A stretch of DNA of 64,000 bases, taken from positions 392,460,001 to 392,524,000 of the forward strand of contig OZ024740.1 in the NCBI GenBank assembly GCA_964016885.1, in the 5' to 3' direction. Positions within the stretch are counted from its first letter, which is position 1, and every line of letters begins with the position of its first letter. Shown here one piece after another: positions 15,210 through 40,791 of this stretch. Below the pieces are notes generated by a model. The model was not told the origin of the DNA. It saw only the letters and a program-made list of their open reading frames with translations, and made no database searches. Source of the stretch: Eledone cirrhosa. Lineage: Eukaryota. A program made the position numbers and the translations under genes.

Positions 15210-15291
15210 TATCATCATCATCATCATTTAACGTCCATCTTCCACGCTTGCATGGGTTTGGACGGGAATTTTCCCACTTGAGGCAAGATTG
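15210..15291 (-). mobile_element. displaced 3' terminus and (GAT)n tail of the RTE LINE at 38883-40791
   Basis: Matches the reverse complement of 13098-13162 up to GGCAAGATTG, where the Merlin TIR begins; the sequence resumes after 38882. Confidence 0.85.
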
Positions 15292-15523
15292 GGCACTACA
15301 ACGCTATTAGCTGTCAGTCCAAACAGGCGAGGGTGACGTCACTCGTCAAACATCGTTTATTTCCGTATTACTACCACGCGTAAGTGGAGTTTTCACGCGT
15401 TTTTTGGAGAGAGAGGGGGGGGGGGGGGCGAGACTTAAAAGGGCCAAATTAGAAAACAAACAGAAAACAAGTCATGGTTATAAAGCATATCGATGTAAGT
15501 GGAGTTACTTAAATGAAAATATA

Positions 15524-15542
15524 GGTGGCCCTTAAAAGGGCC
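15524..15542 (-). promoter_or_regulatory. histone-mRNA-type 3' stem-loop downstream of the Merlin transposase
   Basis: Minus strand GGCCCT-TTTA-AGGGCC-ACC, ~134 nt after the transposase stop, in sense orientation; a truncated duplicate lies at ~15434-15450. Confidence 0.6.
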
Positions 15543-15676
15543 AAATTAGAAAAATTTAAGTTAATTAGAAAACAAGTCATGGTTATCAAATAAATTTGAT
15601 TTATTCATTTATATTTTCATTATTCACCAACCTTATTCAAAAGCATGTTTAGAAACATTTTTTTCACCAACTTTAT

Positions 15677-16554
15677 TCAAATGCATGGAATCAGATGACG
15701 GATATGTTCTAATAACTTTTGGAAAATTTCTCCTTTAAATTCATACGGCCACATGAATTCAATGAGATGGGTTTGAAGCAAATTTCTGGCTGTCCCGTTT
15801 TCCCTTTTATTCCTATTTTTTACGTGTTTCCACAAGCATTCTATGTGATTCGTTGTGGCAAATGTTACTGGATCAACAAAATTGATCGAATGGTTCACCG
15901 TCAAATGTTGATAGCCTAGCTGATCGATCGTATTATAGGAACGCCATAGATCAGATATTATGGTTGTCCCTGGCAATATACGATCCTGTATAATGGTTAA
16001 AAGTGTCTCCGCTGTCCTGTCTTCTACTGCTACTAAAATACATCTTCTGGTACTTCTTTCTAAAGCACCAAAAACCCACTGTGTTTTCACAGAATAGCCA
16101 CGATGGTATTTCCTTCTCACGAATGCGTTTTCATCAATCTCGACAATTCGGTTTGGCCCGCCAAGCTTAATGTTTTGTGCCACATAGTACTCTGCACATA
16201 CATCACCGCAAAAATTTCGCCAATCTGCTACGACCACATTCGCGATACGAGATTTTCTGAAATCTTCTTTTGCCCAAAAATATAATATATCAACTATTTG
16301 TTCACACTTCAAATTGCTATTTTCTAAAAATGTGCCTTTTCTAATAAAAACCTGTTTTCTACATGGTCTTTTACATGACCAGATAATCCCATCTGACATT
16401 TTGTTTCGCTACTTCCAACATACGTTGACTACATGAAGGGCAGACCTTTTGTGTATTCAGAAGTCCTTGAATGTTCAACCAATTGACGGTATCTGCTGTA
16501 GTAGCGGTAGCGATGGTTAATTCCCTTAACACTTGGATATATTATAGAACTCAT
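15677..16554 (-). pseudogene. Merlin / IS1595 (ISXO2-like) DDE transposase, frameshifted near the N-terminus
   Basis: GGPNRIVEIDE, RKYHRG, QWVFG, ILPGTTIISDLWRSY, HLTVNHSINFVDP, TNHIECLW; N-terminal CPSC...WSC..PC zinc ribbon reached via frameshifts from the ATG at 16554. Confidence 0.92.
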
Positions 16555-16829
16555 TTTTCAACTTGCAGATGCGTGTATTATCACAAAGTGAAGATAAAAG
16601 TTTATTTATTTACACGTGGTGTTGGCGATGATTGTTGCTGATTGGTGGGGATTGTCTCCATGGGGACTGTATCCATGCTTTTGAATAAGGTTAGTGAAAA
16701 TAATTTGTTTTCTAAACATTTCATAAATATATAGGGTTGGTGATAAAAATTTGATAACCATAATTTCATTTAAGTTAACTCCACTGTTGGTGAAAATGAC
16801 TTGTTTTTTATATTGATAACCATAACTAT

Positions 16830-16971
16830 GAAAATATGTGACGTCATTCGTCAACCTTCCCTTACTTTCACTTCTGACAGCTAATACCATGAACTGTAAA
16901 AATACAGTTCATGGTATTAGCTGTCAGAAGTGAAAGTAAGGGAAGGTTGACGAATGTCGTCACATATTTTC
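16830..16971. repeat. ~140-bp near-perfect palindrome built from Merlin TIR-like sequence
   Basis: Arms GAAAATATGTGACGTCATTCGTCAACC...CTGACAGCTAATACCATGAACTGTA and its reverse complement, with a 4-nt A loop and one mismatch. Confidence 0.9.
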
Positions 16972-16991
16972 TCGTGTGTGTGTGTGTGTGT

Positions 16992-17808
16992 GCAAATTTC
17001 AATAATATTAAGACACCCTAATGGGGGTTAAACCCCCTATAGTGAAAAGTTTGACCAATAAATGGAACAAGATTTTACGAACTCCTCCTATGGTTTTGGA
17101 GATAGACCCCCATAACCATATATATTCTGAAACTACATTGCCCAGGGTACTTGTATAAGTATATTTCATTTTAATCAAAGGGTTCATCGGGGGCACAAAA
17201 CGGCCGCTGAAACTTTACCTTCGATTTATATGAAATTTAAACCATAGGTAAACGACAAGATATGATGCCTATTCACATCATTTCAGCAAATTTCAATAAA
17301 ATTACAATACCCTATTGGGGGTTAAACCCCTATTAGGGTTGGTTCACCAGGGGGCACAAAATCCCCGCTGAAAATGTTTTCGGTTCGATTTATATGCAAT
17401 TTAAACCATAGATAAATGAAGAGATATGATGCCTATTCACAAAATTTCAATACTATAAGATACCTTAATGGTGGTTAAACCCCCAATTAGGGTTCCCCAG
17501 GGGGGTACAAACCCCCGCTGAAAACTTTTCCCTTTCGATTTATATGAAACTTAAACCATAGGTAAATGACAAGATATGATGCCTATTCACAAAAAAATTA
17601 TTTACAAGAAACAAAATAATAAGATTTAATAATGCAATTTTGATTTGATATATTACAAAAAATGATGTTTTCCAATTTTTCATGCATTATATTTTACATT
17701 AAGTAATATTGAGTTTTTCTCCATAAATTATATCAGATTTAAAATCAATCATCATTTTCTTACAAAAAAAATGTGTGAAACGCAGCAAGGCGCTGGTAAT
17801 TCGGCTAG
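16992..17808 (+). mobile_element. non-autonomous Helitron-like 3' part with ~155-bp tandem repeats
   Basis: Three to four copies of GGTTAAACCCC...CCGCTGAAA...TTCGATTTATATG...GATATGATGCCTATTCAC; ends with hairpin CAGC-AAGGC-GCTG then CTAG|T. Confidence 0.65.
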
Positions 17809-17857
17809 TATATATATATATGTGAGTGTGTGTATATATATATGTGTGTGTGTGTGT

Positions 17858-21049: not shown

Positions 21050-22368
21050 TTATGTCCTATCAACTAATCCAACCTCCAAAATGCTTGACTATTTTTTTAG
21101 CATATTAACAACAAATATGATTTCCACTGCAATTAAAAATGACTAGCTTTGTGAATGGTTTTTCCACCCACTTTCTTGCCTTCATTTTTCTACAAAGTTA
21201 ATCATTGATAGGTTTCAAAGTTATATTCATTCATAATATGTGAAAAAAGTAGTCAACTGCGAGCATTTGTGTGATGTAAATGGTAGGAGTAGGTGTTCTT
21301 TAATAAATTTACCATATGGTGAAGTATGGTTATATGTCCTATCAACTAATCCGACCTACAAGATGCTCGCAGTGTATTATGCTTTTAGCATATTAACAAA
21401 AAATATGACTTCCGCTGCCATAAAAAATGACTAGCTTTGTAAATGGTATTTCCACCCACATCCTCCCTTTTTTCTACAAAGCTAGTCATTTTCATCAGGT
21501 TTCCATGTCATAACCATTGATAATATGTGCATAAAATAGTAATTTGCGAGCACCTTTTATGTCAAATTGGTTGGTAAGCACAAAAAAAAAAAAACAATTG
21601 CCAGATGAAAATTTGTCACACCAAAATCAATAGCTTGGTGTGATGTAGTATGGTGTGGTTTGGTGAGGTTTCTACAAAGATAGTCATTTTCGACAGGTTT
21701 CCATGGCATAATTATTGATAAGTAGAAAAAAATAGTCAATTGGGAGCACCTTTAATGTCAGATTGGGTGGTAAGCACACACACACAAAAAAAAAAAAAAA
21801 AGGAAACGGGAAGAAAATGTTTCACACCAAGATCAATAGCTTGGTGTGATGTAGTATGGTGTAACTTGGTATGGTGTGGTTTGGTGAAGTTATGAAATGG
21901 AAACCAATTGTAAACGATAGATTCCCATGTCATATTCATTGATAATGTGGGAAAATAGTCATTTGCAAGCACCTTTGATGCTAGTTTGAGGTAGTAAACA
22001 CAAAAAAAAAAAAAAAAAAAAGCAGGTAGCAAATTTGTCACATTGATATCCATACCATGGTGTGATGTAAATGGTACGAGTAGGTCTTTTGTAATAAATT
22101 TACCATATAGTGAAGTATGGCTATGGTGTGGATTGGGGTAGGTTAATGTGCTGTGGTGTGCTTTGTTATAAGTGAGGATTTAAATTTCCACTTTGAGTTA
22201 TGTTAGAAAATGGCTAGCTTTGTAAATGGTATTTCCACCCACATCCTCCCTCTTTTTTCTACAAAGCTAGTCATTTTCATCAGGTTTCCATGTCATAACA
22301 ATTGATAATATGTGCATAAAATAGTAATTTGCGAGCACCTTTTATGTCAAATTGGGTCGTAAGCACAC

Positions 22369-22399
<31 letters not shown>

Positions 22400-25300
22400 C
22401 CAGATGATAATTTGTTGCACCAAAATCAATAGCTTGGTATGATGTAGTATGGTGTGGTTTGGTGAAGTTTCTACAAAGATAGTCATTTTCGACAGGTTTC
22501 CATGGCATAATTATTGATAAGTAGAAAAAAATAGTTAATTGGGAGCACCTTTAATGTCAGATTGGGTGGTAAGCACACAGACAAAAGAAAAAAAAGGAAA
22601 CGGGAAGAAAATGTTTCACACCAAGATCAATAGCTTGGTGCCATGTAACTTGGTATGGTGTGGTTTGGTTTGGTGAAGTTATGAAATGGAAACCAATTGT
22701 AAACGATAGATTCCCATGTCATATTCATTGATAATGTGTGGGAAAATAGTCATTTGCAAGCACCTTTGATGTTAGTTTGAGGTGGTAAACACAAAAAAAA
22801 AAAAAAAGAAAGCAGGTAGCAAATTTGTCACATTGATCTCCATACCATGGTGTGATGTAAATGGTAGGAGTGTGTGTTTTGTAATAAATTTACCATATAG
22901 TGAAGTATGGTTATGGTGTGGATTGGGGTAGGTTAATGTGCTGTGGTGTGCTTTGTTATAAGTGAGGATTTAAATTTCCACTTTGATTTATGTTAGAAAA
23001 AAATTTTCATTCATTTTTGCATGTGCTATCAACTTCCAAGATGCTCGCAGTGGACTATGCTTTTAGCATATTAACAAAAAATGACTAGCTTTGTAAATGG
23101 TATTTCCACCCACATCCTCCCTCTTTTTTCTACAAAGCTAGTCATTTTCATCAGGTTTCCATGTCATAACAATTGATAATATGTGCATAAAATAGTCATT
23201 TGCGAGCACCTTTTATGTCAAATTGGGTGCTAAGCACAAAAAAAAAAAGAAATTGCCAGATGAAAATTTGTCACACCAAAATCAATAGCTTGGTGTGATG
23301 TAGTATGGTGTGGTTTGGTGAAGTTTCTACAAAGATAGTCATTTTCGACAGGGTTCCATGGCATAATTATTGATAAGTAGAAAAAAAAAAGTCAATTGGG
23401 AGCACCTTTAATGTCAGATTGGGTGGTAAGCACACACACACAAAAAAAAAAAGGAAACGGGAAAAAAATGTTTCACACCAAGATCAATAGCTTGGTGCGA
23501 TATAGTATGGTGTAACTTGGTATGGTGTGGTTTGGTTTGGTGAAGTTATGAAATGGAAACCAATTGTAAACGATAGATTCCCATGTCATATTCATTGATA
23601 ATGTGTGGGAAAATAGTCATTTGCAAGCACCTTTGATGTTAGTTTGAGGTGGTAACCACGAAAAAAAAAAAAAAAGCAGGTAGCAAATTTGTCACATTGA
23701 TCTCCATACCATGGTGTGATGTAAATGGTACGAGTAGGTCTTTTGTAATAAATTTACCATATAGTGAAGTATGGCTATGGTGTGGATTGGGGTAGGTTAA
23801 TGTGCTGTGGTGTGCTTTGTTATAAGTGAGGATTTAAATTTCCACTTTGAGTTATGTTAGAAAAAAATTTTTTCCTTCATTTTTGCATGTGCTATCAACT
23901 TCCAAGATGCTTGCAATGGACTATGCTTTTAGCATATTAACAAAAAATATGACTTCCGCTGCAATAAAAAATGACTAGCTTTGTAAATGGTATTTCCACC
24001 CACATCCTCCCTCTTTTTTCTACAAAGCTAGTCATTTTCATCAGGTTTCCATGTCATAACAATTGATAATATGTGCATAAAATAGTCATTTGCGAGCACC
24101 TTTTATGTCAAATTGGTTGGTAAGCACAAAAAAAAAAAGATTGCCAGATGAAAATTTGTCACACCAAAATCAATAGCTTGGTGTGATGTAGTATGGTGTG
24201 GTTTGGTGAAGTTTCTACAAAGATAGTCATTTTCGACAGGTTTCCATGGCATAATTATTGATAAGTAGAAAAAAAAAAGTCAATTGGGAGCACCTTTAAT
24301 GTCAGATTGGGTGGTAAGCACACACACAAAAAAAAAAAAAAAGGAAACGGGAAGAAAATGTTTCACACCAAGATCAATAGCTTGGTGCGATGTAGTATGG
24401 TGTAACTTGGTATGGTGTGGTTTGGTTTGGTGAAGTTATGAAATGGAAACCAATTGTAAACGATAGATTCCCATGTCATATTCATTGATAATGTGGGAAA
24501 ATAGTCATTTGCAAGCACCTTTGATGTTAGTTTGAGGTGGTAACCATAAAAAAAAAAAAAAAGCAGGTAGCAAATTTGTCACATTGATCTCCATACCATG
24601 GTGTGATGTAAATGGTACGAGTAGGTGTTTTGTAATAAATTTACCATATAGTGAAGTATGGCTATGGTGTGGATTGGGGTAGGTTAATGTGCTGTGGTGT
24701 GCTTTGTTATAAGTGAGGATTTAAATTTCCACTTTGATTTATGTTAGAAAAAAAATTTTCATTCATTTTTGCATGTGCTATCAACTTCCAAGATGCTTGC
24801 AATGGACTATGCTTTTAGCATATTAACAAAAAATATGACTTCCGCTGCAATAAAAAAATGACTAGCTTTGTAAATGGTATTTCCACCCACATCCTCCCTC
24901 TTTTTTCTACAAAGCTAGTCATTTTCATCAGGTTTCCATGTCATAACAATTGATAATATGTGCATAAAATAGTCATTTGCGAGCACCTTTTATGTCAAAT
25001 TGGTTGGTAAGCACAAAAAAAAAAAGAGATTGCCAGATGAAAATTTGTCACACCAAAATCAATAGCTTGGTGTGATGTAGTATGGTGTGGTTTGGTGAAG
25101 TTTCTACAAAGATAGTCATTTTCGACAGGTTTCCATGGCATAATTATTGATAAGTAGAAAAAAAAAAGTCAATTGGGAGCACCTTTAATGTCAGATTGGG
25201 TGGTAAGCACACACACAAAAAAAAAAAAATGAAACGGGAAGAAAATGTTTCACACCAAGATCAATAGCTTGGTGCGATGTAGTATGGTGTAACTTGGTTT

Positions 25301-26270
25301 GGTGAAGTTATGAAATGGAAACCAATTGTAAACGATAGATTCCCATGTCATATTCATTGATAATGTGGGAAAATAGTCATTTGCAAGCACCTTTGATGTT
25401 AGTTTGAGGTGGTAAACACAAAAAAAAAAAAAAAAAAAAAGCAGGTAGCAAATTTGTCACATTGATATCCATACCATGGTGTGATGTAAATGGTAGGAGT
25501 GTGTGTTTTGTAATAAATTTACCATAAAGTGAAGTATGGTTATGGTGTGGATTGGGGTAGATTAATGTGGTGTGGTGTGCTTTGTTATAAGTGAGGATTT
25601 AAATTTCCACTTTCATTTATGTTAGAAAAAAAATTTTTCCTTCATTTTTGCATGTGCTATCAACTTCCAAGATGCTTGCAGTGGACTATGCTTTTAGCAT
25701 ATTAACAAAAAATATGACTTCCGCTGCAATAAAAAATGACTAGCTTTGTAAATGGTATTTCCACCCACATCCTCCCTCTTTTTTCTACAAAGCTAGTCAT
25801 TTTCATCAGGTTTCCATGTCATAACAATTGATAATATGTGCATAAAATAGTCATTTGCGAGCACCTTTTATGTCAAATTGGGTGGTAAGCACAAAAAAAA
25901 AAAAAAAAAAAAAAAAAAATTGCCAGTTGAAAATTTGTCACACCAAAATCAATAGCTTGGTGTGGTTTAGCGAAGTTTCTACAAAAATAGTCATTTTCGA
26001 AAGGTTTCCATGGCATAACAATTGATAATATAGATAGTCATTTTCGACAGGTTTCCCTGTCATAATTATTAATGTGAAAAAAAAAAGTAAATTGGGAGCA
26101 CCTTTAATGTCAGATTGGGTGGTAAGCACACACACACAAAAAAAAAGGAAACGCGAAGAAAATGTTTCACAAGATCAATAGCTTGGTGTAATGTAGCATG
26201 GTGTAACTTGGTATGGTGTGGTTTGGTTTGGTTTGGTGAAGTTATGAAATGGAAACCAATTGTAAACGAT
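21050..26270. repeat. satellite, ~880-bp unit x ~6, with internal ~200-250-bp subrepeats
   Basis: Anchor CTAGCTTTGTAAATGGTATTTCCACCC recurs near 21430, 22215, 23085, 23975, 24860 and 25740; each unit has three GCACCTTT...polyA...GGTGTGATGTA subunits. Confidence 0.95.
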
Positions 26271-35915: not shown

Positions 35916-38138
35916 TTGCTTTTCGATATGATGGATGGACTAAGGAATTCTGGAGAGTCTGAAGAATCTGGACACTCAGAGACAATGTCAAAGATAACGA
36001 CAAATTCACCTCATGCTGCCGGACGAAAGGGCAAGGAGTCCTCTTTGTTTCGGCCGCGAATGGCCAACATAACCCCAACCCCATCCCGCTCACCCCTCCC
36101 CGCGCCCCACCCACCAAACGCAATCCAAAACTTCAGAGTTGGTACCATGAATGTAGGCACCTTAAAAGGTCGCTCTAACGAGGTTGTAGAAATGCTTGAA
36201 CGTAAGGAGGTTGATGTTTGCTGTATCCAAGAGACCAGGTGGAGGGGCGGGTCTGCTAGATTCATTGTGGGTAAAAAACGATGCTATAAGCTTTTCTGGG
36301 TGGGAAATGACAATGGGCTGGGTGGGGTAGGAATCATGTTAGCAGAAAAATGGGTGGATAAGATAATAGACGTAAATAGAGTGAACGACAGAATAAGTAA
36401 AATAAGACTTGTTCTAAATAGAACTACTGTGACAGTAATATCTGCGTACGCACCCCAATCCGGACTGCCTGGCGCTATAAAAGACAGATTCTACGAGACA
36501 CTGATGCTCACTGCCTCCCAATTAACCGACAGTGACTATATAATTATTGCTGGCGACCTAAATGGTCACGTTGGACAACATTGTGACGGCTATGACGGAA
36601 TCCATGGAGGCTATGGGTTTGGTACTAGAAATGAGGAAGACTCCAGACTCTTGGAATTCTGTGACGCAAATAACCTAACTATCTGTAACACTAACTTCAA
36701 AAAGCGAGACAATCACTTCATCACCTACAGATCAGGGGAACATACCAGCCAGGTAGATTATATCCTTACCAGAAGACGTGACAGAGTGTCTGTTGTAAAC
36801 ACTAAATCCCTCCCCCATGAAGAATGCACCTCTCAACATAGACTCATAATTAGCGACCTCATAGTCAGGACGAGACGTTCTCGACAACAGAAGAGGACTA
36901 TCCTCAGGAGAAAAATATGGAAGCTAAAGGACCCCACAACCAGTAATAAATTTAAAAGCATATTACTTGATGCTTTCGACAGTAAGGAAGAGCAATTAGA
37001 GTCGTACAATATAGAGGAACAGTAGGGTTTCCTCAAAGCAAACCTGCTGATGGCGACAGATGAAGTCTGCGGCTGGAGCAGGCCTATAGGCAGGAGGAGA
37101 GTAACGTGGTGGTGGAACAGTAAGGTGGAGGAGTCAATTAAGGCCAAAAAGCAGGCTTGGAAAGTATGGCGGGATGGGGGAAGTAGAGAAGACTATCAAG
37201 TGGCCAGGAGGGAAGCTAGGAGACAAGTGTACTTCGCAAGAAGGGAAGCAGAGGAAAGAAAGTTCAAGCATGTTCTACAACACGAGGACCAAAAACGTGA
37301 GGTGTTCAGGATTGCTAGGCAGTGTGTCAAGGAAAACCGTGATATTGTCGGGGAGAAGTGTGTCCTTAAGGATGATGGTGTACTTGCCATCACTGACGCT
37401 GATAAGGTAGCTTGGAAGTGTCACTACGAAAGGCTACTAATAGAGGGACCAGCAGTGCTAGTTGAAGGTAGTATAATAAGTAAGGCAATCAAAGATATGA
37501 AGACGGGTAAGGCGGCTGGGCCTTCGGAAATAGTTGCTGAAATGGTGAAAGCATCTGGAACGGTGGGACACACTATGGTCACCCGGATAGTAAACCAAGT
37601 CATACAGAATGGGGTTGTTCCGAAGGACTGGCGTAGCAGCATCATCATTAACTCTAAAAGAGTAAAGGAGATGCCCTAGATATGGGTAACTATAGAGGCA
37701 TTAAATTAATCGACCAGGTCATGAAGGTCACAGAAAAAGTAATAGCGCAACTAATCAGAGAGCGAATTGATCTAGATGAAATGCAGTTCGGGTTTGTGTC
37801 AGCTAAAAGTACCACAGACGCTCTTTTCATTGTACGGCAACTACAGAAGTGCCTAGCTAAAAGTAAACCCCTATACTTAGCTTTTGTCGACTTGGAGAAA
37901 GCCTTTGACAGAGTCCCCCGTTCCATTATCTGGTGGGCTCTTAAAAAACTAGGTGTTGATGAATGGCTTGTGAGAGCTATACAAGCCATGTATAAAGAAA
38001 CAGTCAGCAAGGTTAGAATTAACAATGAATATAGTGAAGAGTTTAGCATAAAAGTTGGTGTTCACCAGGGCTCCGTTCTTAGCCCCCTACTATTTATTAT
38101 TGCCCTTCAGGCTATAATAGTGGAGTTCAAGACCGGCT
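35916..38138 (+). pseudogene. RTE-clade LINE ORF (APE endonuclease plus RT N-half), 3'-truncated
   Basis: GTMNVGTLKGR, CIQETRW, ISAYAPQ, GDLNGHVG, SQVDYIL, SQHRL (APE); NYRGIKL, MQFGF, FVDLEKAFD, GVHQGSVLSP (RT); one stop at 37023 and a frameshift near 37655; ends before the YADD motif. Confidence 0.95.
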
Positions 38139-38708
38139 TAATAAAATACAATACAGAGGTAATAGAAATTAAATAAATACATACACGCATGCAAATAAGT
38201 ACATACACAAGCATACGCGAAAACACATGCCATAGGTATACAAAACCACGAACATATAACTATGTGTGTGTGTGGGTGCGTGTATACAAATAAATAAATA
38301 ATTAAATAAACGTATATAAATAAATAAACGTAACGGCGATGAATTAGTTTTGCGAGGTTTTTTATATGAAATCGTGTGTCGAAACAAATATTGTTATACT
38401 TGGGGAGGGTCATTTTTGTGTAATATTGCCAGAATTAATAACAGAATACACTCACTGTTTGGTTGGTTTTCCAACAATAAATAAACGTATATAAATACAT
38501 ATATATACATACATACACACATATATATATGTATGTATGAAACTTAATTATTCGTGTAACGTTTTTAATAATTTTTTGATATTACTTACCAATTTCTTAT
38601 CTTTTGCTTTTATTGTCCTGCATTTGTTGATTTGCGTTATTCCCTGGAGAAAAATGGCGCCAAACTTTTCCCTTTGAAAGAATAATGTGATTGTGTTCAC
38701 GTGATATA

Positions 38709-38874
38709 TAGCTGTCAGTCGTGAAAGCAGGCGAAGGTGACGTCATTCGTCATCGTTTATTTCCGTATTACTACCACCAAGTAACTCCACTTACGCGTAG
38801 TAGTAATACGGAAATAAACGATGTTTTGCTTTCATCGGCTGCTTTCGACTGACAGCTAATAGCGTTGTAGTGCC
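38709..38874. repeat. Merlin right end: direct partial TIR copy followed by the inverted TIR (hairpin)
   Basis: TAGCTGTCAGTC...CATCGTTTATTTCCGTATTACTAC is mirrored by GTAGTAATACGGAAATAAACGATG...GACTGACAGCTA. Confidence 0.85.
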
Positions 38875-38882
38875 CAAGATTG

Positions 38883-40791
38883 GTTGTCTTGCTCGTATAG
38901 GACTGTCTGGCGGGTTTTTTACGGCTGGATACCCTTCCTAACACCAACCACGTTTACAGTGAGGACTGGGGGGTTTTTACTGTGTTACCTACACGGCCAC
39001 ATTACAGCGTGGACTGTGTTTTTTTTTTGTCGTGACACCTACATGACCTCATTTCTTTCGGACTGGATGTTGTGGTACCAACATAACTTTACATTGAAAG
39101 GGGTGGTGTGGATGGGGGTGGGGACAGTGGGACGGGTGTGTATTTTTGTTAAGAGATGCCTACTGACTGTGGGTTTCGCTTTGTACTTAGGCAAGGCGGG
39201 TCTTCTGTATTACTGTGTAGCGCCAAAGATCTCGGTCCAGTAACATTGTCTTGGAGAGGTGTAAGTGTGTGAGGTCGGAATTTATCAAGTCGTCCCAGGT
39301 TTTTCTGGGTCTGCCTACTCCGTGGCTACCGTTTATTTTTATCGCCCTGCACTTTTTTATACAGTTGTCGTCTTTCATGCGCATCACGTGACCATACAAA
39401 CGTAGTCTTCTCTCGAGTAAACAACATCTGATTCCTCTTATTCCTAATTTCTCCCTTAGTTCATTTATGCTTTGCCGTTCACGTATATTACTATTACACA
39501 TCCAACGGAGCATGCAAGCTTCGTTCCTCTCCAGTCTGCGTATATCCTCTGCAAACAATGCCCAAGTCTCACTGCCATGTAACATTGCTGTTCGTATGCA
39601 GGCATCATACAGCCTGCCTTTCATTTTTAGAGAGAACCCTTTAGCGGCCAATAGTGGTATAAGCTCTTTGAACTTTTTCCATCCCGTTCTGACTCTAGCT
39701 ACTGTACTTTCAGAGCACCCTCCCCCACTGCTGATTTTGTCACCCAGGTAACTGAAGGTGTCCACTATTTCTATAGTACCATCTGTGCAATGGAATGAGC
39801 TAGTATTTTTGGGCACTTGCTGCTACTTATTGCACCTGAGCACCGGCCACATATAAAATCTATATTCTTAGTTAGCTTACCTGTGATCCCACTACATACT
39901 TTGCATTTGGGACATAAAATGGAGTTTCTGCCTAATCCTTTCCTACACACTGAGCATGGCCATTTCCCAGATGGGACCAGTGCCCTATTTTCCTTCCTAC
40001 AAACTAGAACTTTAGTCTTAGACAGGTTAATTTTAAGGCCTTTTGATTCTAGGCCATGCTTCCATGTTTGGAATTTCTTCTCTAGTTCAGCCATTGATTC
40101 AGCTATGAGTGTTAGATTATCTGCGTATAGGAGTTCCATGGGCAGCCGGTCTTGAACTCCTCTGTTATAGCCTGAAGCGCAATAATAAATAGTAGGGGGC
40201 TAACAACTTTTACGCTAAACTCTTCACTATATTCGTTGTTAATTCTAACCTTGCTGACTGTTTCTTTATACATGGCTTGTATCGCTCTCACAAGCCATTC
40301 ATCAACACCTAGTTTTCTAAGAGCCCACCAGATAATGGAGCGGGGTACTCTGTCAAAGGCTTTCTCCGAGTCAACAAAAGCTAAGTATAGGGGTTTACTT
40401 TTAGCTAGGTACTTCTCCTGTAGTTGTCGTACAATGAAAAGGGCGTCTGTTGTACCTGACACAAACCCGAACTGCATTTCATCTAGATCAATTCGCTCTC
40501 TGATTAGTTGCGCTATTACTTTTTCTGTGACCTTCATGACCTGGTCAATTAATTTAATGCCTCTATAGTTTCCCCTATCTAAGGCATCTCCTTTATCCTT
40601 GTAGCAGTTAATGACAATGCTGTTATGCCAGTCCTTCGGAACGACCCCATTCTGTATGACTTGGTTTACTATCCGGGTGATCATAGTGTGTCCCACCATT
40701 CCAGATGCTTTCACCATTTCAGCAACTATTTCCGAGGACCCAGCCGCCTTGCCTGTCTTCATATCTTTGATCGCCTTACTTATTATACTAC
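38883..40791 (-). mobile_element. 5'-truncated RTE LINE (RT, C-terminus and 3' UTR); target of the Merlin insertion
   Basis: ORFs 40112-40762, 39771-40139 and 39187-39816 with MQFGF, LLYADN, FSYLGD, LHGSETW, GRPRKTW; the 3' UTR continues at 15291-15210. Confidence 0.95.

Follow-up and report, generated by a model that had tools for sequence, protein, structure and literature searches.

A Merlin element with a stem-loop behind its transposase

The window (the whole 64-kb stretch of Eledone cirrhosa DNA that was analysed) contains a transposable element of 23,583 bp (15292-38874) with CAAGATTG at both ends. Its features, by position in the window, are as follows.

15284-15291, plus strand: left copy of the 8-bp target-site duplication (TSD), CAAGATTG
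15292-15400, plus strand: left terminal inverted repeat, which starts GGCACTAC
15434-15445, minus strand: truncated second hairpin copy (5′ arm and loop only) within subterminal repeats
15480-15526, minus strand: 47 nt from downstream of H4, covering the cleavage site and the region of the downstream element, 47/47 identical to the donor H4 gene with one base missing
15527-15542, minus strand: histone 3′ stem-loop GGCCCT-TTTA-AGGGCC, attributed to capture from a host H4 gene
15543-15547, minus strand: 5′ flank AATTT, transposon-derived, replacing the donor's ACACC through a deletion ending at the stem base
15600-15605, minus strand: AATAAA with a U-rich tract behind it, a predicted poly(A) signal 72 nt past the stop and ~60 nt upstream of the stem
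15672-15677, minus strand: a second AATAAA, which overlaps the stop codon and is unique to the window copy (family majority AATAAG)
15677-16554, minus strand: Merlin (DDE_Tnp_IS1595) transposase gene, a 300-aa intronless ORF in intact copies
16764-16785, plus strand: what is left of the H4 cassette mirrored into the 5′ arm, where a 27-nt deletion took the antisense-facing hairpin that most copies carry
16830-16971, no strand assigned: inner end of the core, where a truncated terminal repeat forms a perfect inverted repeat of 69 nt and joins core to cargo
16972-38819, no strand assigned: cargo of the 23.6-kb composite, mostly colinear with other copies (LINE endonuclease and reverse transcriptase pieces, tandem repeats, Helitron-like piece)
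38820-38874, minus strand: right terminal inverted repeat, which ends GTAGTGCC
38875-38882, plus strand: right copy of the TSD, CAAGATTG

The transposase matches PF12762 (E 4e-18, 66.3 bits) and is thus of the Merlin/IS1595 type; the copy in the window is frameshifted within its first ~55 codons, and a 240-aa ORF remains (15677-16399). The complement of GGCACTAC is found at 38867-38874, within a matching right end at 38864-38874. The available text of PMC8101967 gives termini starting with GG and a TSD of 8 or 9 bp as Merlin hallmarks. The element, with its DDE_Tnp_IS1595 transposase, GG termini and 8-bp TSD, belongs to the Merlin superfamily. It shares with the Merlins described there (IS1595/IS1016-related, with a ~300-aa DDE_Tnp_IS1595 transposase, GG termini and an 8-bp TSD) the imperfect long arms and internal tandem repeats, but differs from them in forming 7-63-kb composites, a span far above theirs, with common cargo and a histone 3′ cassette; the word 'histone' is absent from the main text of that paper.

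A search of the same genome (3.0 Gb) returned 30 loci of the close Merlin family, of which 22 cover the whole 1.7-kb core and were counted, while eight partial loci were dropped. The 22 copies are 97-99% identical to a majority sequence with one intronless 300-aa ORF, and the hairpin-bearing family is young. This ORF is intact, together with the hairpin, in copies L004, L005 and L016; the copies with an intact ORF are found at G000:C3:15.91 Mb, C3:18.18 Mb and C14:33.51 Mb. All full copies start GGCACTAC, the DNA to their left is unrelated, and in the other copies left and right ends can be paired by position at distances of about 7-63 kb; four of six paired ends examined have an exact 8-bp TSD.

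Colinear cargo of 1.9-16.7 kb is common to the window and five other copies. At its inner end the cargo starts with a repeat-rich piece (16972-17810) that closes with a small hairpin and CTAG-T, which we take to be Helitron-like; the same piece is common to many family copies. A tandem array at 21359-26028, with a unit of roughly 870-890 nt, differs in copy number between elements, and broken LINE endonuclease and reverse transcriptase ORFs at 35928-38176 are ~96% identical in three of five other copies examined. A further reverse transcriptase piece (40112-40762) lies outside the element. The foldback at 16830-16971 runs for more than 1 kb into a mirrored transposase copy in four loci (L018, L020-L022). 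The genome also holds a second, distant Merlin family (L138-L167), with many open frames of 325-341 codons, that is possibly recently active.

The sequence-only reading of this locus had described a perfect histone-type stem-loop in sense orientation ~134 nt past the Merlin transposase stop, and the letters, the fold and the Rfam score all bear this description out. Read from 15542 to 15527, the minus strand is GGCCCT-TTTA-AGGGCC, followed by ACC; the predicted folding gives the stem as drawn, and 134 nt separate it from the stop TGA (15679-15677). In the hairpin, with its 6-bp stem and 4-nt loop, the conserved G-C (stem position 2) and U (loop position 3) are kept. Scoring with the Rfam Histone3 model (RF00032), as had been proposed, gave 34.0 bits (E 4.7e-6), exactly the gathering cut-off, and this is the single Histone3 match in the whole window. 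A bare 16-nt pattern that we assume to be the histone stem-loop consensus matches once in the window versus 0.10 times expected, and eight of 100 shuffles contain a match; by itself the pattern is weak, borderline evidence.

A histone H4 gene as the source of the stem-loop

The donor comparison set consisted of 22 host stem-loops behind H3, H4 and H2A, collected from an H4 search (21 matches). Among them, an H4 gene at G000:C7:67458180-67458488 (67.458 Mb), in an H3-H4-H2A cluster, is identical to the element at 47/47 nt past the hairpin with a 1-nt gap, versus 39 identical nt for the next-best H4 paralog. The loop is TTTA in the element and TTTC in the donor; TTTA also occurs in three of the 22 host histone genes. 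Within a 20-kb donor region the match extends over 63 nt (E 1.6e-24), and a chance hairpin is ruled out by this match to one H4 gene. No Merlin ends were found within 10 kb of the donor H4.

Related elements retain more of the same gene. L034, the one element of its kind found, keeps the last H4 codons, the stop, the UTR and the ACACC flank, and its best match is the same donor (score 218 versus 140). In subfamily B (eight copies aligned) a truncated transposase is joined to ~530 nt of donor spacer and the hairpin is lost, and miniature elements keep the flank, the hairpin and ~300 nt in both arms. The transposase-coding family retains 63 of ~640 captured nt, almost exactly the stem-loop and downstream element. 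By this sequence evidence the hairpin and the DNA that follows it are captured H4 DNA, not mimicry: the proposal that the transposase transcript mimics a histone 3′ end gives way to an origin by capture, given the 47/47 nt, the H4 codons and the spacer.

Two other origins were considered and rejected. Convergent mimicry is ruled out since neutral spacer and H4 codons came along, and donation of the hairpin by the element to H4 is ruled out since all H4 paralogs have the hairpin and the donor is without Merlin ends.

The same origin overturns the earlier remark that no clear U7-binding element follows the hairpin. What follows it is the downstream region that belongs to the host H4 gene itself, donor-identical bar one missing base, and is therefore whatever E. 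cirrhosa uses as a downstream element. Judged by eye, AAGT and GATATG-like motifs that follow most host H4 stem-loops are also present in the donor-derived region of the element. A GAT(A/G)TG motif lies 30-40 nt past most host H4 stem-loops (L082-L097, by eye) and may be part of the E. cirrhosa downstream element.

The host encodes SLBP: two exons match PF15247, at 62.6 and 35.2 bits. A U7-like candidate with an Sm-type site and a 3′ hairpin lies on the minus strand at G000:C3:314686447-314686503 (L061 1501-1557); it scores 29.7 bits, below the cut-off of 34, and is the sole candidate to come out of 65 sequences scored. It pairs no better than shuffled sequences do, whether with the downstream regions of the 22 host stem-loops (mean z -0.2) or with the element (z +0.5), and it is therefore not validated as U7. 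No description of U7 in molluscs was found in the titles and abstract starts of the open-access literature. Beside one host H3-H4 pair, a 5S rRNA gene lies ~1 kb away (L087 2959-3077, G000:C14:42.77 Mb).

Substitutions between the donor and the captured DNA amount to 4.5-4.6%, and the capture is therefore recent. The subfamily B copies are the top BLAST matches, so that their divergence of 1.4% is biased low, and the divergence of the miniature elements (1.5-12.7%) is inflated by mixed structures and was left out. Comparison of L034 with the window family points to one deletion that joined the transposon UTR straight to the first stem bases, making AATTT; from such sequences we infer the order of the deletion events that gave this flank. 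In an 18-row tree, whose inner forks are weak and whose bootstrap is not settled, the family transposase DNA is 0.12 changes per site from subfamily B and the cassette is unchanged. From an unchanged cassette and spacer beside a diverged transposase we infer a recent recombination between arm and ORF, in which H4-bearing arms would have been transferred onto the transposase lineage. Long-term conservation of the cassette was rejected as a selection signal, since the divergence of the element from its donor is only 4.5% and the non-functional spacer is equally unchanged between subfamilies.

The element is a TIR transposon that carries host-gene DNA whose parent locus can be identified, and after the capture it was multiplied by transposition (562 exact copies, unrelated left flanks, TSDs); it falls within the definition of a multicopy Pack-TIR. 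In the available text of Tan et al. 2021 (PMC8277862), the multicopy Pack-TIRs of animals, such as Ssk-FB4 of Drosophila melanogaster and Pack-hAT-N8_XT, likewise hold host gene DNA in a TIR transposon, were likewise amplified by transposition far from the parent gene, likewise have short cargo and are likewise attributed to template switching or gap filling. The present case differs from them in its cargo, an RNA-processing signal that is found mirrored in both arms and follows a transposase which some copies have kept intact; the word 'Merlin' is absent from the main text of that paper. No description of a transposon-borne histone stem-loop was found in the titles and abstract starts of the open-access literature; supplements of the papers cited here may list Merlin or histone cases.

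Placement and copy number of the hairpin

The sequence-only reading had proposed to follow position and orientation across Merlin families. Within the family both are fixed, with a perfect hairpin behind the transposase (3′ arm) in 18/22 copies; sister and other Merlins do not carry it. The hairpin was absent at 6/6 sister-subfamily loci (61-87% protein identity), among 20 further loci fetched, and within 1.5 kb of 28/28 transposases of other Merlin families (35-53% identity). A perfect hairpin is also present in the 5′ arm, antisense to the transposase, in 14/22 copies, and the two face outward. Both arms are perfect in 11 copies, the 3′ arm only in seven, the 5′ arm only in three and neither in one; the window shows one hairpin because the 27-nt deletion removed the front copy. 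The 3′ hairpin is deleted in 0/22 copies and the 5′ hairpin in three. Behind its hairpin the 3′ arm retains 47 nt, including both motifs common to host H4 genes, and the antisense 5′ arm 30 nt. Other subterminal modules are mirrored alike, also in sister elements that are without the hairpin.

This mirrored arrangement raises the possibility of a role at the DNA level, in which the hairpin would be a subterminal module that aids end pairing, binding of transposase or host factors, or foldback rearrangement and cargo capture. Such a role would suit a hairpin that is found at both ends, inverted, and in transposase-free miniature elements, as well as the deletion breakpoint at the stem base and the many foldbacks and long cargo of the family. 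However, sister subfamilies and subfamily B transposed without the hairpin, the 23.6-kb element has none at its true right end (the window has one Histone3 match), and the inner hairpin was lost in 3/22 copies. We regard a DNA-level role as quite improbable.

Genome-wide, the hairpin followed by ACCTATAT is present in 562 exact copies (control 0). The AATTT flank precedes it in 99 of the 100 exact matches listed first, and the ACACC flank is intact in 65/562, donor included. Copies with ACACC reach Rfam scores of up to 42.3 bits, equal to real H4 genes, and transposase DNA was found within 1.5 kb of 0/30 sampled from these 65. A genome-wide Histone3 search, in which 75 candidates were scored, returned real H4 ends and, for the most part, back-to-back pairs in miniature elements that are palindromic and have the same arms. 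Such copies account for the preponderance of transposons when this genome is scanned for histone stem-loops, with 562 exact copies versus about two dozen histone gene ends. At G000:C18:4.9-12.7 Mb lies a dense cluster of miniature elements, each a palindrome of ~600 nt that contains two intact H4 stem-loops; several of these elements have common flanks, and the cluster is therefore partly a segmental duplication.

With so many copies, the cassette might act on RNAs other than the transposase mRNA, by terminating antisense or read-through transcripts that leave the element, or, at its hundreds of insertion sites, as a cryptic U7 site or SLBP decoy in host pre-mRNAs. The outward orientation of both copies and the number of exact copies, 65 of which retain the host flank and score up to 42.3 bits in Rfam, are in keeping with this, but a side effect of that kind would explain neither origin nor retention, and on the sequences we hold it to be very improbable.

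Passenger DNA or a histone-type 3′ end

The 3′ end of replication-dependent histone mRNA (RF00032; SLBP, U7 snRNP) is matched in the element by a host-type 16-nt stem-loop and the donor's downstream region. The element differs from it in having an AAUUU flank, 134 nt between stop and stem, an upstream AATAAA and a non-histone ORF. As had been noted from the letters, the flank is AATTT rather than A/C-rich with adenines, and the comparison with the host sharpens the point: A is present at -3 in 21/22 host stem-loops, and U at -2 or -3 in 0/22. According to the available text of PMC10388802, a secondary source on this point, the minimal SLBP site of wild-type affinity includes two 5′ adenines. 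The reported AATAAA signals between stop and hairpin number two, at 15605-15600 and at 15677-15672, the second overlapping the stop; the first is intact in 19/22 copies, and an AATAAA in the UTR occurs in one of 22 host histone genes (an H4). The distance from stop to stem is 134-144 nt in element copies versus 24-40 nt in 21/22 host genes, the exception being an H4 with 114 nt. In the available text of 10.64898/2026.10.14.759114, a distance of 25-60 nt is critical for regulated decay and the metazoan median is 30. By sequence, then, the element resembles a functional histone 3′ end but departs from it in two respects, the flank and a stem-loop that lies more than 60 nt past the stop and behind a poly(A) signal. 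The host H4 exceptions mean that neither the UTR AATAAA nor the long distance absolutely forbids a histone-type end.

Across the 22 copies, substitutions amount to 1.14% in the 3′ hairpin, 1.35% in the downstream 47 nt, 1.05% in the UTR and 1.50% in the ORF. The hairpin mutates like its neighbours and gives no signal of selection, in a comparison of low power, as copies are not expected to show selection after insertion.

The reading we favour, at roughly three chances in four, is that the element is a multicopy Pack-TIR that captured an H4 3′ end, that the hairpin is probably a passenger and that the transposase mRNA probably ends at the predicted upstream poly(A) signal. A Merlin element would have copied ~640 nt of H4 at G000:C7:67.458 Mb, comprising the last codons, UTR, stem-loop and ~560 nt of spacer, most likely through template switching or gap repair. 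The arm would then have been mirrored to the other end by foldback, as with the rest of the lineage's subterminal DNA, and deletions would have trimmed the captured H4 DNA differently in each subfamily; in the transposase-coding family one deletion, ending at the stem base, would have taken the A/C flank that SLBP reportedly needs. Host-encoded repair and transposase may have spread the cassette to hundreds of sites. Polyadenylation of the transposase mRNA would take place upstream of the hairpin, at the signal predicted from sequence alone.

Donor identity, the intermediates, presence in both arms, loss of the flank, the AATAAA, the stop distance and the hairpin-less sisters make a passenger likely. 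Against it stand the minimal stem-loop and downstream element that were kept, in sense, behind an intronless ORF, which is a post hoc observation; the 47 nt with both H4 motifs in the 3′ arm versus 30 nt in the antisense 5′ arm; and the deletion of the 3′ hairpin in 0/22 copies versus the 5′ hairpin in three. A passenger would represent a clean, datable multicopy Pack-TIR of an animal, the genome still containing both the donor and the intermediates.

The rival reading is that the cassette was retained because it is functional. Transcripts would pass the AATAAA and be cut after the hairpin by SLBP and U7, giving an untailed, S-phase-biased transposase mRNA, and the transposase would be placed where cut-and-paste gives net copy gain. 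The sense orientation and fixed position of a perfect stem in 18/22 copies, the host-type loop, the intact downstream region of H4 itself, the intronless ORF that is intact with the hairpin in L004, L005 and L016, and an SLBP encoded by the host all fit such a role. So does the share of the young family (97-99% to majority) in the exact copies, most of which belong to it (AATTT in 99/100 among the matches listed; 562 in total versus 65 with ACACC). However, the flank is without the -3 A present in 21/22 host genes, AATAAA lies upstream in 19/22 copies, and the stop distance of 134-144 nt compares with the 25-60 nt of regulated decay given in the available text of 10.64898/2026.10.14.759114. 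The mirrored antisense copy is without any such role, sister subfamilies spread without the hairpin, and a capture as recent as 4.5% leaves no long-term conservation to cite. We judge retention for this function unlikely, and it is likewise doubtful that a trimmed, stolen H4 cassette makes an S-phase-timed mRNA and was thereby behind the recent burst of this Merlin family of giant, cargo-carrying elements.

The suggestion that the hairpin limits transposase expression to S phase therefore finds no support, given the mirrored antisense copy, the lost flank, the AATAAA, the stop distance and the sister and other Merlins without it. On balance the feature is real and its origin solved, and an S-phase function appears unlikely. 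Nothing apt on S-phase transposase expression was found in the titles and abstract starts of the open-access literature. Histone mRNAs are the sole untailed cellular mRNAs known, according to the available text of PMC4604434; if the cassette were functional, the transposase mRNA would, within the literature searched (titles and abstract starts), be the first cellular mRNA outside the histones whose end is made by SLBP/U7, and would provide a direct mechanism coupling cut-and-paste transposition to replication. Copies with an intact ORF and the cassette, together with sisters without it, offer a natural test for histone 3′ processing of a non-histone mRNA.

One family copy (L023 1429-1506, G000:C2:321.57 Mb) is inserted ~60 nt behind an H3 stem-loop in an H4-H3-H2A cluster; as one of 30 loci, this insertion at a histone cluster possibly reflects chance, or a liking for histone loci.
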